From: a virus
Lineage: Duplodnaviria > Caudoviricetes
Virus record (IMG/VR): IMGVR_UViG_3300021387_000688
DNA length: 64,000 bases
Reading direction: 5' to 3' (one strand)
This document shows, piece after piece, positions 27,417-38,008 of this stretch (its first letter is position 1; the number at the start of each line of letters is the position of its first letter). Below the pieces are notes generated by a model. It saw only the letters and a program-made list of their open reading frames with translations. It made no database searches and had not been told where the DNA came from. The translations under genes were made by a program, and so were the position numbers.

Positions 27417-27446
27417 AATATAGGAGTTTTCAGGTTTAAGAATTTC
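27417..27446 (-). promoter_or_regulatory. Class A promoter GAAATT-N18-TATATT
   Basis: Exact motif and spacing. Confidence 0.7.
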
Positions 27447-28194
27447 TATCTTTTTTCACCAACTCATCCAAGTCAAATACTTTATAAGGGGAGTCGGGAT
27501 TGTCCCAGCAAATATTTTTATACATTTTAGGATCGACTACAAATTGTTCCCAATTCTTTTTGTGCTGTAAAGGTGGAACTTCCCTTCCAGAATCTTTGTA
27601 GGCTTTTCTTACCATTCTGTAATTTTCCAAATCCCAAGTAAAGTAAGATTCGTCAACGGGAATTTGATGGGTATGGCCATGGATGTTTATGAATTGAGAA
27701 TTCTTTTTTAAGAAAACAGGTTCGTGACTTAAGATAAAACTATCCTTGTAAAGAATTGGTCTATCATAAACTTTATCAAAACCAAGATATCTAAAAATAT
27801 CTTCCAAAGAAGAATTCTTGTCAAAAGGTTCAATTTTATCCCAATCCTCTTTCGATTTTCTAAAATGATTGAATTGACGATCATGGTTTCCAAGAACAAT
27901 ATTCAACTGACGGTAATTACCCTTCATTACATCAATGAAAGCTTTCAACTGATCGAGAGTACATTCTCCAAATAATTTACCGTAAAATAAATCCCCAAGA
28001 TTCCAAAGTATTACTCCTTTCTCATCTGGAATTTGCTTGTTAATTGAGTTTACAATATCCCAAGACATTTGTATAGATTTTTCATCATTAAAGGGGAGAT
28101 AATCTTTTCGTTCTGCGTATTTTATAATATTGCTATGAAGTAAGTGACTTACTTAATGTAAGTCAGAAGTAATATAATTTCTTTCTGACTGCAT
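27436..28194 (-). CDS. Calcineurin-like metallophosphoesterase interrupted by an in-frame TAA (candidate translational bypass)
   Basis: AGGAGG SD and ATG at 28194 give MQSERNYITSDLH*VSHLLHSNII, in frame with LGDL, GNHD, SHEP and HGHTH. Confidence 0.85.
28144..28165 (-). other. Candidate ribosome-bypass element: hairpin with the stop codon in its loop
   Basis: TGACTTAC-ATTAA-GTAAGTCA perfect 8-bp stem; CAT (28158-28156), TAA, GTA, AGT, CAC (28146-28144). Confidence 0.65.
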
Positions 28195-28281
28195 TTTTAT
28201 GTCCTCCTAAAATAATTAGCATAATTATATTATAGTATTTGATTATGTTAGTGTGTAACAAATGTTTGCACTAATTAAAGT

Positions 28282-29300
28282 ATGAATTACGAAAAAAATT
28301 ATTATGATTATGTAAATTATGTAAAAAACACCATGTTAAGCCTAGAAGTTTAGGAGGAGACAACTCTAAAGAAAATTTGATTTTACTTACAGCAAGAGAA
28401 CATTTTCTAGCACATTATTTACTTTGTAAATTTACAAAAGGAGAAGATAAAAAGAAAATGGTTTGGGCTTTCCATAGACTATGTTATTCGGATTCTTCTA
28501 ACCATATTAGAAAAGAAAATAATTTCAAAATGAGTAGTAAATTTTATGAATATTTAAGAAAAGAATTTGTTAAAATTTTTGAAAGTGAAGATTGGAAAAA
28601 AGCATGTAGTGAACGTAGTAAAGACAGGGTTTGGATAAACGACGGTAAAAACTCTAAAATGGTTAAGGATTTTGAATTAGATGATTTCTTAAAGGATGGC
28701 TGGACAGTCGGAAGAATTATGAATAAATCCAATTTAGGAAAGTATACACCTACAGAGGAGGAGAAAAAAAGAAAAGCATTAAAATTATCCATTAGAGGGA
28801 AAAACTCTGTTTGGGTCCACAATGATTTAGAAGACAGAATGATTCAAAAAGATCAATTAAAAGAATTTTTAGATAAAGGGTATTCAGAAGGTAGAACCCA
28901 TAAAAAGAAAGCATCTTCCAACGGTCAAATTGGTAAAATAGCTGTTTACAATCCTTTAACTGATGAGGAAAGGAGGATAGATAAGAAAGATTTAGAGATC
29001 TTTTTAAGTAAAGGTTTCATTAAGGGTAGAAGAAAAGCCAGTGAAGAAACTAAACAAAAAATGAGTAAGTCCCATACAGATCCGGATAGTAAATCCCAAA
29101 AATATTATCAAAGCCTTAGAAATGGTATTTCTAAAAGAAAACATTTCGAAGGTAAAATTGTACATAAAGATGGTATTTATAAAGGGGTTTCTTTGGAAGA
29201 GTTGGACACCTATTTATCTAAAGGGTGGCAAATAGGTGCCAGACCTAAATCAGAAGATTGGAAAAGAAAAGCCAGAGAAAGAAATCAAAAAAAGATTTAA
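28282..29300 (+). mobile_element. HNH homing endonuclease, frameshifted near the 5' end
   Basis: MNYEKNYYDYVNYVK then, in the -1 frame, KHHVKPRSLGGDNSKENLILLTAREHFLAH; four C-terminal ...FLxxG(W/Y/F)xxGR-type repeats and a SEETKQKMS NUMOD-like motif. Confidence 0.8.
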
Positions 29301-29302
29301 AA

Positions 29303-30569
29303 TTATTTTGTAACCTCCTGATTAGGTGAATGAGTAACATCATCTTCAAACATTCCAAAATGATTTAAGAACTTCCACCTCTTTTTAATAGAGAATCCTC
29401 TTGTCAATTTGTATTTAAGGGCTGCCCGAGATAATCTTAAATTATTAATAATTTCTCCTGCTTTTTTATTATCCTCTTCTTTTTGAGGATCGAGCCCGGC
29501 TGTAAGTCTACCACATTCATTTGCATAATCTAAAACAACTGTTGCAAAATTAACAAACATTCTTTGAGTAGAATTTAAGAAAGGAGTGGTTGCAATATCA
29601 TTAGGTTCTACCTGCCAGTAACACTCTGTAAGCATTCCCAATAATGTTTCGTAAAGCTTACGGTCTTTCTTAAATAAAAATTTTGGCGGATTGTTAAACC
29701 AATTTGCTTTCAATTCCAGCATTCCCTTTTCAAGCAAATCCATGTATTGCTGTTCCAGCCAATTGTATACTACAACTTCGTACATCATTATTTTATTTCT
29801 CCTCTTGCTTTATATTGAGATTCTGTTAAGCAATCTCTCTTTACAAAGTCTATATCTTTAGAATATTGATTCTTTTCTACCCACCGGATCATGGTACCAA
29901 AAGGTCTACTTACTGTACACTTTTCATAAAACTGCGAATTATCCTTATTAACATAATGCCAGAAAACTTCTTGGTTTTCATATTTGCAAACAGGTAGTAC
30001 TAGTTTTACATAAAGATCATCTTTTACATCTTTATTAAATTCGTTACTAAAAGTTTTGTAAGGGGCTACGTGGAATCCGTTTTCGGTATCTATATCTAAA
30101 AGTACATAGTATTCTTCTTTGTAAAGACTTTTAGTTAAATCAGCTTTAGTATTTCCTGCTAAGTAAATATCTCCAATTCTAGGAATCGCCCCTGTTTTGA
30201 AATCAAAAATCTTTGTAGAATCGTTTAAGTCAACATAATATAAATTCATTATTCAACTCCCCTTTCTTCGTTTAATTTTTTCATTTTATTTGTTAAAGGT
30301 TCAAAAAGCTTTCTTAAGCAATCAAAGATTAAGAAAATAAAAGCCATTACAAAATAAAGAGGACTGAATACCAAATTAAAGATTCCTTGAGATATTTCAT
30401 ATCTGTTGGTACGTTCATCCCAAAAGAAATCAGTCCATATTTCTTTGAATGGGGTTTCTTTTCCTTCTATATGGTCACTGAGCCAAAGCGTGCAAGCCAA
30501 TAGATAATAGAAGGCAGCTTCGACAACTACCCATAAAGTTATAAATGATACGATTTCAATAATATTCAT
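29303..30569 (-). CDS. Three hypothetical ORFs (29303-29788, 29788-30249, 30249-30569; the last is a membrane protein)
   Basis: Coupled ORFs; TATATT 6 nt before ATG 30569. Confidence 0.6.
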
Positions 30570-37614: not shown

Positions 37615-38008
37615 TGGAGATGCCGAGAATTGAACTCGGGTCCCATACAACCTTTTACAAATAAACTTCTATACAAGCTTAAGCTAGTTTTCGATTCGGG
37701 ATAGCTACCGGATTCTGCCCAAGTACGTGACTTTTACAAGCCACTTTCGTAAAGAGATACATGCTCTCGCTCCGCCTCTACTCTTTACTAGTCATCGCAA
37801 TCTTTCAAGTATATAAGCTATTGTGACTCGTTCACTTAAAACCCGCTAGAGCTCTGTTTTGGCTCTAGAACTTGAAATGGTGCTTACGCAACCATTGCCA
37901 AGTCTTCGTACTCTGTTTCGTCGTTTACTTACGGTGCTTTTAGGGTACACTAACCACTGTGCTTGATTTATCTGTTACTGAGTTGCAGGTCGAAACCTTT
38001 ACACCCCC
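37615..38008 (-). ncRNA. ssrA: tmRNA, predicted tag (A)DETEYEDLAMVA*
   Basis: 5' GGGGGTG pairs with 3' CATCTCC-A (G3-U alanine determinant); T-arm CCGAG-TTCAATT-CTCGG; helix 2 pairings; tag frame 37922-37884 preceded by TAAAC; CCA not encoded. Confidence 0.95.

Follow-up and report, generated by a model that had tools for sequence, protein, structure and literature searches.

Natural translational bypassing is known from very few systems, namely gene 60 of phage T4 together with its topoisomerase homologues, the byp elements of yeast mitochondria, and terminase genes of the phiHau3 type. In T4, the 50-nt bypass of gene 60 belongs to an HNH element, MobA (Bonocora et al. 2011, as cited in Manning & Atkins 2022, 10.1101/2022.08.31.505936), and the MobA/gene 60 members that have been described are all located in topoisomerase genes, with gaps of 20–50 nt (10.1101/2022.08.31.505936). 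Gaps of 10 nt and 7 nt have been reported for terminase genes of the phiHau3 type, where the junction peptide was identified by mass spectrometry (PMC10732093). Two further cases are taken here as cited in that paper, namely the byp elements in the mitochondria of Magnusiomyces capitatus (Lang et al. 2014, as cited in PMC10732093) and, in E. coli, the 'stop-hopping' that takes place at a low level from a codon to its match (Weiss et al. 1987, as cited in PMC10732093).

The DNA analysed here is a stretch of 64,000 nt (hereafter the window) from a virus of the Caudoviricetes (IMG/VR record IMGVR_UViG_3300021387_000688), in which a metallophosphoesterase gene on the minus strand is interrupted after its codon 13 by 12 nt. 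We propose that these 12 nt form a mobile coding gap, which ribosomes cross by hopping from one His codon to another, a reading to which we give a probability of roughly 0.6 and for which there is no protein or RNA evidence.

The locus shares with T4 gene 60/MobA the matched take-off and landing codons, a stop directly after the take-off codon, a stem-loop that involves the take-off region, and an HNH endonuclease of the same protein family, phrog_655. In both systems the cassette supplies coding sequence to replace what it displaces, its end lies at the landing codon or just past it, and the gap often outlives an endonuclease that has decayed or disappeared; the copy in the window is a pseudogene, as is mobA in T4. 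In contrast, the host gene here encodes a metallophosphoesterase instead of a topoisomerase II, the gap measures 8–14 nt across the loci described below instead of 20–50 nt, and the matched codons are those of His rather than Gly. Take-off would occur here at codon 11–13, so that no long nascent-peptide signal is present. The hairpin is formed between the gap and coding sequence upstream of it, and its loop contains the stop, whereas the T4 stem-loop lies in the gap, and no conserved SD-like element is found in the gap here. The endonuclease gene is located upstream, on the opposite strand, and does not split the gene. The gap sequences of the two systems are not homologous, and no resemblance to the gap of the Acinetobacter phage fHyAci03 was seen in a comparison made by eye only. 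With its PF00149 host gene and its gap of 8–14 nt, the locus thus lacks two features of the MobA/gene 60 family, namely a position in the Toprim region of the gene for the topoisomerase II large subunit and a homologous bypass cassette of about 50 nt.

The byp elements of M. capitatus have lengths of 27–55 nt. Like the element studied here, they are mobile and have a hairpin as well as take-off and landing codons that match, and they are skipped in translation, as is proposed for it; unlike it, they are read by mitochondrial ribosomes, are GC-rich, occur many times per genome and have no linked homing endonuclease. Stop-hopping in E. coli, with events at about 1%, likewise crosses a stop by a jump of a few nucleotides between two synonymous codons, but it is synthetic or adventitious and involves no conserved natural element with a hairpin. 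The terminase genes of the phiHau3 type, from a Streptomyces phage and prophages, have in common with our locus a very short non-coding block in a conserved phage gene, local RNA structure, and an A-site codon that is decoded slowly and has a landing codon nearby. Their trigger, however, is a rare UUA codon and not a natural stop, gene and host are different, and only three such genes are known (PMC10732093); the word 'homing' is absent from the text of that paper. Full-text searches of the literature yielded no paper on endonuclease-linked short gaps outside topoisomerase genes.

Anatomy of the interrupted phosphoesterase gene

The gene and its immediate upstream region in the window comprise the following elements.

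28229..28257, minus strand: promoter-like element within the cassette, TACACA-17-TATAAT overlapping CTAACA-16-TATAAT (consensus scan, 10/12 matches; function inferred)
28203..28208, minus strand: SD AGGAGG, 8 nt 5' of the ATG, supplied by the cassette (read directly)
28156..28194, minus strand: phosphoesterase codons 1-13, with strand β1 and metal-binding motif I (D11-x-H13), from sequence and alignment
28158-28156, minus strand: proposed take-off codon CAT, codon 13
28145..28165, minus strand: perfect 8-bp hairpin with a 5-nt loop, TGACTTAC / ATTAA / GTAAGTCA
28144..28155, minus strand: 12-nt coding gap TAA GTA AGT CAC, absent in 30 homologues and with small variations in 11 loci
28155-28153, minus strand: gap stop TAA, followed by GTAAGT
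28146-28144, minus strand: proposed landing codon CAC
27436..28143, minus strand: phosphoesterase codons 14-248, with motifs II-V, and stop

The arrangement given in a preliminary description of the window, in which an AGGAGG and an ATG at 28194 lead into 13 codons, then TAA GTA AGT CAC, then an in-frame LLHSNII..., was found to be correct on the minus strand. This ATG is the sole SD-led start, the next in-frame ATG (28068) having no preceding SD, and the mini-ORF that it opens reads MQSERNYITSDLH. The downstream part runs for 235 sense codons from TTA at 28143 to the stop TAA at 27438-27436. When the 12 nt are taken out, a product of 248 aa with the pattern SDLH-LLHSNII results, and the earlier statement that their removal restores the family pattern and an enzyme of this length holds.

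The downstream part matches PF00149 with 27.7 bits (Pfam cut-off 21.5), and an uninterrupted twin of the gene matches the phosphoesterase family phrog_547. All of the PF00149 motifs I–V (DxH, GD, GNH[DE], H and GHxH) are present, motif I in the mini-ORF and motifs II–V downstream, and the columns of these motifs are invariant in alignments A1 and A4. In the AF2 model of the uninterrupted twin P0002 (90% identical; pLDDT 95), residues 4–9 form a strand, after which D10 and H12 follow. The top fold matches of this model are 1xm7 and the nuclease MPE 6nvo; the fold search returned generic metallophosphoesterase matches only, and a profile search of PDB sequences gave no match. Gene callers split or truncate genes of this kind, which appear here as ORFs of 210–245 aa without catalytic motif I.

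The 59 long ORFs of the window end 38 times in TAA, 13 times in TAG and 8 times in TGA. Since TAA is the commonest stop of these ORFs, the standard code applies, and stop reassignment is not in play in the window. A tmRNA with the tag DETEYEDLAMVA was detected by ARAGORN at 37615-38008 (minus strand) of the window, which has no tRNA gene.

All 30 aligned homologues show SDLH-[CLF][LFC]H-x-N-I without the four extra codons, and in a wider alignment 45 of 45 have exactly two residues between the His of motif I and the next invariant His. Because the homologues have no room for further residues at this point, the 12 nt represent an insertion that falls exactly between the motif I His and the next conserved stretch. 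The precise insertion that had been suspected from the window alone is thereby established.

Protein differences between the window and the uninterrupted locus L002 cluster at 27560-27680 (minus strand), corresponding to residues ~196–215, where DESYFTWDLENYRMVRK... stands against DKDYMTIDVENSKMVIK.... To judge by the alleles that it matches, such as P0004 and P0008, this looks like a recombination patch in a mosaic gene. The first 64 residues of P0076 (191 aa, from a 2.7-kb ENA contig; MNWNIVNSINKQ... to GNHDKQ) also belong to this phosphoesterase family, and its remainder is a different metallophosphoesterase-like sequence; P0076 may be a hybrid gene or a chimeric assembly.

Gap variants and hairpin in eleven phage loci

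Further loci were collected by tracing truncated ORFs in the homologue list to their contigs and by pattern scans. As this search ran through long ORFs, decayed copies would have been missed. Assemblies from Logan, ENA, JGI and IMG/VR contain 11 distinct phage loci with a break at the same position, and four gap lengths are observed.

12-nt gap, TA[AG] GTAAGT CA[CT]: window, L001, L004, L005, L008, L009, L019/L021 and L104-L108 (8 loci)
14-nt gap, TGA GTGTAAGT CAT, with CAC as the take-off codon: L006/L007
11-nt gap, TAG GTAAG CAC: L032 (a 240-kb IMG/VR contig with only 40% protein identity)
8-nt gap, TAG GT CAC: L074

The 12-nt class can also be written TA[AG]GTAAGTCA[CT]. The same interruption in independent Logan, ENA, JGI and IMG/VR assemblies excludes an assembly error, for which the preliminary description had called for a check. 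With the insert and its variations recurring in all of these and in five samples of one study, which yielded one and the same gap-bearing strain, an assembly or sequencing artefact is hardly conceivable.

Megablast and tblastn searches of 50,697 isolate phage records gave no match, and phages of this kind are known only from metagenomes. In related phages, spirochaete-type flagellar genes adjoin the locus, FlaA-like (PF04620) and flagellin (PF00669/PF00700) genes being found at L009 538-1422 and L003 3339-4205. A 20-mer gap pattern had no match in IMG/VR, a looser 17-mer pattern matched only the L032 contig there, and a scan with the pattern of the 8-nt class returned only an uninterrupted distant homologue. 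Pattern matches in the sets genome_contigs (7/7) and metagenome_contigs (20/22) were discarded as unrelated chance palindromes. Eight unrelated contigs (L011-L013, L015-L017, L024 and L030), one of which measures 3.2 Mb, share a perfect 20-nt palindrome of the same form, which has a TGA in the loop and near-identical non-coding surroundings; it is a conserved hairpin of another organism and is unrelated to the gap.

At each of the 11 loci, and thus in all four length classes, a His codon (CAY) precedes the gap, a stop follows this codon directly (TAA, TAG and TGA all occur), the final codon of the gap is again CAY, and the downstream frame is open for 226–247 codons. No other CAY occurs inside the gaps in any frame. 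Once the gap is skipped, the flanks fit the family pattern SDLH-[LF][LFC]H-x-N-I in all loci (alignment A3). The only variable positions of the 12-nt class are position 3 (A/G, still a stop) and position 12 (C/T, still His), and all four combinations of the two are found if the 8- and 11-nt classes are counted. Although its codons differ by synonymous changes, the peptide T-S-D-L-H is the same in 10 of the 11 loci, L032 having I-S-D-L-H, and the D and H of motif I are nearly invariant. Such conservation would matter only if the peptide of the mini-ORF is joined to the rest of the enzyme. The three other gap lengths resemble the 12-nt gap with 4 nt removed, with 1 nt removed, or with 2 nt added and two substitutions. 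On the assumption that they arose from it, a target of 12 nt has received three indels that change the frame, and none has fallen in the ~700 nt downstream, at any locus.

How could the downstream frame be reached? The 12-nt gap is in frame, and the gaps of 8, 11 and 14 nt shift the frame; because three of the four lengths do so, readthrough cannot account for the whole set. One could instead invoke a mix of ordinary recoding types, with readthrough in the 12-nt class and a +2 or −1 frameshift in the 8-, 11- and 14-nt classes, which would give enzymes with 2–4 extra residues after motif I. It is consistent with the in-frame 12-nt gap and with the frame of the downstream ORF being open across the gap in the 14-nt and 8-nt classes. 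However, such a mix would demand different mechanisms for near-identical sequences and would leave tRNA(His) without a cognate re-pairing site for the +2 or −1 shift. It is also at odds with the homologues, 30/30 and 45/45 of which keep exactly two residues between the two His, and with the standard code of the window, where TAA closes 38/59 long ORFs. We consider this explanation very unlikely. Only His-to-His skipping restores SDLH-[LF][LFC]H-x-N-I in all loci.

The perfect 8-bp hairpin with the stop in a 5-nt loop, which had been noticed before in the letters of the window, was reproduced by folding. Its 5' arm consists of the S-D-L-H codons and its 3' arm lies within the gap. Its energy is −9.2 kcal/mol (z = −4.15), and 0 of 200 shuffled sequences fold as well. 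A hairpin is present in all four classes (−9.2, −11.5, −4.1 and −7.5 kcal/mol; z from −2.1 to −4.2). Its stem comprises 8 bp in loci with the 12-nt gap, 9 bp in L006, 5+2 bp in L032 and 6 bp in L074. In L006, the sole locus with CAC as its take-off codon, this codon pairs with an added GUG, and in L074 it is the Leu codon CUU whose partner is an AGG within the gap. Covariation is described here class by class, the extra pairs of the 8- and 14-nt classes being out of register in alignment A3. No hairpin was found in the uninterrupted alleles that were folded (L002 and L075). Pairing between the gap and the downstream flank was also considered and rejected, since it reaches −4.1 kcal/mol in the window and L009 only, lies between 0 and −1.9 kcal/mol elsewhere, and is not conserved.

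A hairpin conserved at the site might instead guide an unknown cleavage and ligation that excises the 8–14 nt from the mRNA, and a gap length that does not depend on the frame fits excision as well as hopping. Neither an Rfam family nor an intron-like element was found, though, an Rfam search of the gap region yielding no match at E ≤1 except for a chance match to a snoRNA. The size of 8–14 nt is far below that of any known self-splicing intron, and the matched His codons and the obligatory stop would have no role in splicing. An intein, which needs a Hint domain, is likewise not indicated for an insert of this size. To our knowledge, no bacterial or phage system carries out hairpin-directed excision of 8–14 nt from mRNA. 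Removal at the RNA level thus strikes us as highly improbable.

A mobile MobA-family cassette at the gap

One feature of the locus was missed by the preliminary description: the gap forms the edge of a mobile MobA-family homing-endonuclease cassette.

28138..29304, no strand assigned: whole mobile cassette, 1167 nt (blastn break points versus L002)
28282..29300, plus strand: HNH homing-endonuclease gene of the MobA family (phrog_655), pseudogene (PHROG match; tblastn in two frames)

The cassette contains the endonuclease gene, the promoter-like element, the SD, replacement codons 1–13, the gap and two further codons, and it stands in place of 40 nt of L002, namely the first 13 codons of the latter. 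On both sides of it, the window and the uninterrupted L002 share 96–97% nucleotide identity, and the downstream part of the phosphoesterase gene is 97% identical between the two. A run of N at ~2818-2918 of L002, between the same 18-nt sequence on both sides, is a scaffolding artefact of the public record and not a biological gap. The SD AGGAGG is conserved in the module of all 12-nt loci, and the promoter-like stretch TATAATATAATTAT...TTTTAGGAGG co-travels with the gap in L001, L005, L009 and L104.

The endonuclease matches phrog_655 with E = 1e-11 in the window, 9e-29 in L001 and 8e-33 in L005. Ac3_014, the endonuclease of the gene 39/60 bypass cassette of fHyAci03, belongs to the same family (E = 5e-50) and shares 32% identity with that of L005 (BLASTP, E = 2e-14). 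Relative to the intact genes of L001 and L005, the copy in the window has suffered a 40-nt deletion near 28327, by which 14 codons before the HNH histidines are lost and the frame is shifted. A programmed −1 frameshift within this gene (28282-28376) was considered and dismissed, as the A-rich junction is, according to the intact relatives, the scar of the 40-nt deletion.

A second pair of loci, L004 and the uninterrupted L102, gives a further view of the transfer: the introduced tract ends exactly at the landing codon and brings its own S-D-L codons, TCT GAC TTA versus TCG GAT TTG, which form the 5' arm of the hairpin. The right edge is thus located at or just after the landing codon in both donor/recipient pairs and is fixed across loci. 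The left edge varies, falling at the endonuclease gene (window, L001 and L005), at the promoter (L009 and L104) or near the SD (L019, L004 and L008). A fixed right edge combined with a variable left edge is, on the evidence of these break points, the pattern expected of repair tracts that would start at a cut near the gap; the same layout of the two edges has been stated for MobA (10.1101/2022.08.31.505936). A second, unrelated homing endonuclease (NUMOD3 type, phrog_314) was observed in L004 at 1422-2544, ~360 nt upstream of the gap-bearing gene, as an insertion relative to L075 and L102. A 70-aa ORF that adjoins the phosphoesterase start is missing in L004.

On a tree of 75 proteins the interrupted state requires 9 changes, and each gap allele has an uninterrupted twin of at least 90% identity, one of them identical downstream. 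The gap and an intact frame are retained in loci whose endonuclease is dead (window) or lacking (L006, L009, L019, L032, L074 and L104), the strain recovered from five samples among them.

These observations bear directly on the main rival to the hop, which is that of a selfish null allele. Here the endonuclease module, or error-prone repair of its cut, would plant a stop-containing palindrome and inactivate a dispensable phosphoesterase, the bodies of the genes being still intact as the invasions are recent. The mobility of the module is evident, as is its scatter over the tree; the close uninterrupted twins, together with flanks in the window 96–97% identical to those of a gap-free phage, speak for the same explanation, and the bias of our search towards long ORFs has to be counted on its side. 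The dN/dS check of the downstream part that had been suggested could be made, and the pairwise values between gap-bearing copies are 0.07–0.35, but it did not prove decisive. Because the module moves between already diverged alleles and dS is saturated, dN/dS is no test of selection after the insertion; it cannot separate the time before from the time after that event, and the intact frames could reflect recent arrival rather than selection after arrival. On the other hand, a null allele makes no demand for a stop as the first codon, for a terminal His codon, or for a hairpin kept in four length classes. It also leaves unexplained why three length changes that are not multiples of three occur within a gap of 8–14 nt and none in ~700 nt downstream in 11 loci, why the gap and the open frame survive where the endonuclease has decayed or been lost, and why the motif I residues of the mini-ORF are kept. 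On this balance we regard inactivation by a selfish insertion as unlikely, while taking it seriously.

Proposed decoding and its significance

The preliminary description had inferred a very small His-codon hop rather than random decay. This inference gains support from 11 loci with four gap lengths, although the support is comparative only and no product has been seen. We favour the hop over readthrough or simple decay because the 11 loci keep bypass-like features while the length of the gap changes by non-multiples of three.

In the proposed mechanism, ribosomes would start at the ATG at 28194 and synthesize MQSERNYITSDLH. At this point CAU would hold the peptidyl-tRNA(His) and the A site the stop UAA; the tRNA would uncouple from the message, and the mRNA would slide by 12 nt (8–14 nt across the classes). 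The tRNA(His) would then re-pair with the first cognate triplet, the CAY that ends the gap, which is CAC in the window. The move is one from CAU (wobble) to CAC (fully cognate) in five loci. Decoding would resume at UUA and yield the metallophosphoesterase of 248 aa, for which the hop-specific junction peptide is predicted to be NYITSDLHLLHSNIIK.

The role of the hairpin, which is formed by the S-D-L-(H) codons and the gap, is likewise inferred. Both of its arms are inside the ribosome footprint at take-off. It would probably aid take-off or hide the stop, and it may do so by competing with codon–anticodon pairing and by hiding the stop once uncoupling starts; the palindrome may instead act at the DNA level, e.g. 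in resistance to the endonuclease. Within the gaps no consistent SD-like element was found, AGGU or GAGU after the first base of the stop being present in some of them at 0–6 nt from the landing codon. The module-borne peptides share x-S-[ED]-[RK]-[ND]-Y-I-T-S-D-L-H, and L006, L074 and L032 have other N-termini. Because the take-off peptide comprises only 11–13 residues, a nascent-peptide signal like that of gene 60 cannot be the same.

What would the gap be good for? It probably destroys the target site of the endonuclease and so would confer immunity while the enzyme is kept, as in T4 MobA/gene 60; this immunity function, too, is an inference. We extend it only tentatively, and with more doubt than confidence, to the idea that free-standing homing endonucleases of the MobA family, and perhaps others, routinely carry 'immunity gaps' of 8–14 nt, which ordinary bacterial ribosomes would hop efficiently, needing no long nascent-peptide signal and nothing more than a local hairpin, a stop and a matched codon.

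At this locus a homologous MobA-family endonuclease is tied to an unrelated and much shorter gap in a different gene. The four natural length variants and the many sequence variants constitute a ready-made mutational series. If the hop is real, the locus would offer a minimal system of ~35 nt, with take-off at codon 13, in which to ask what a ribosome hop needs, and the pairing of an endonuclease with a bypass would be a general evolutionary strategy and not a T4 oddity. Should immunity gaps indeed prove routine, selfish nucleases would have in bypassing a third general means, next to introns and inteins, of marking essential motifs in phage genes without destroying those genes.
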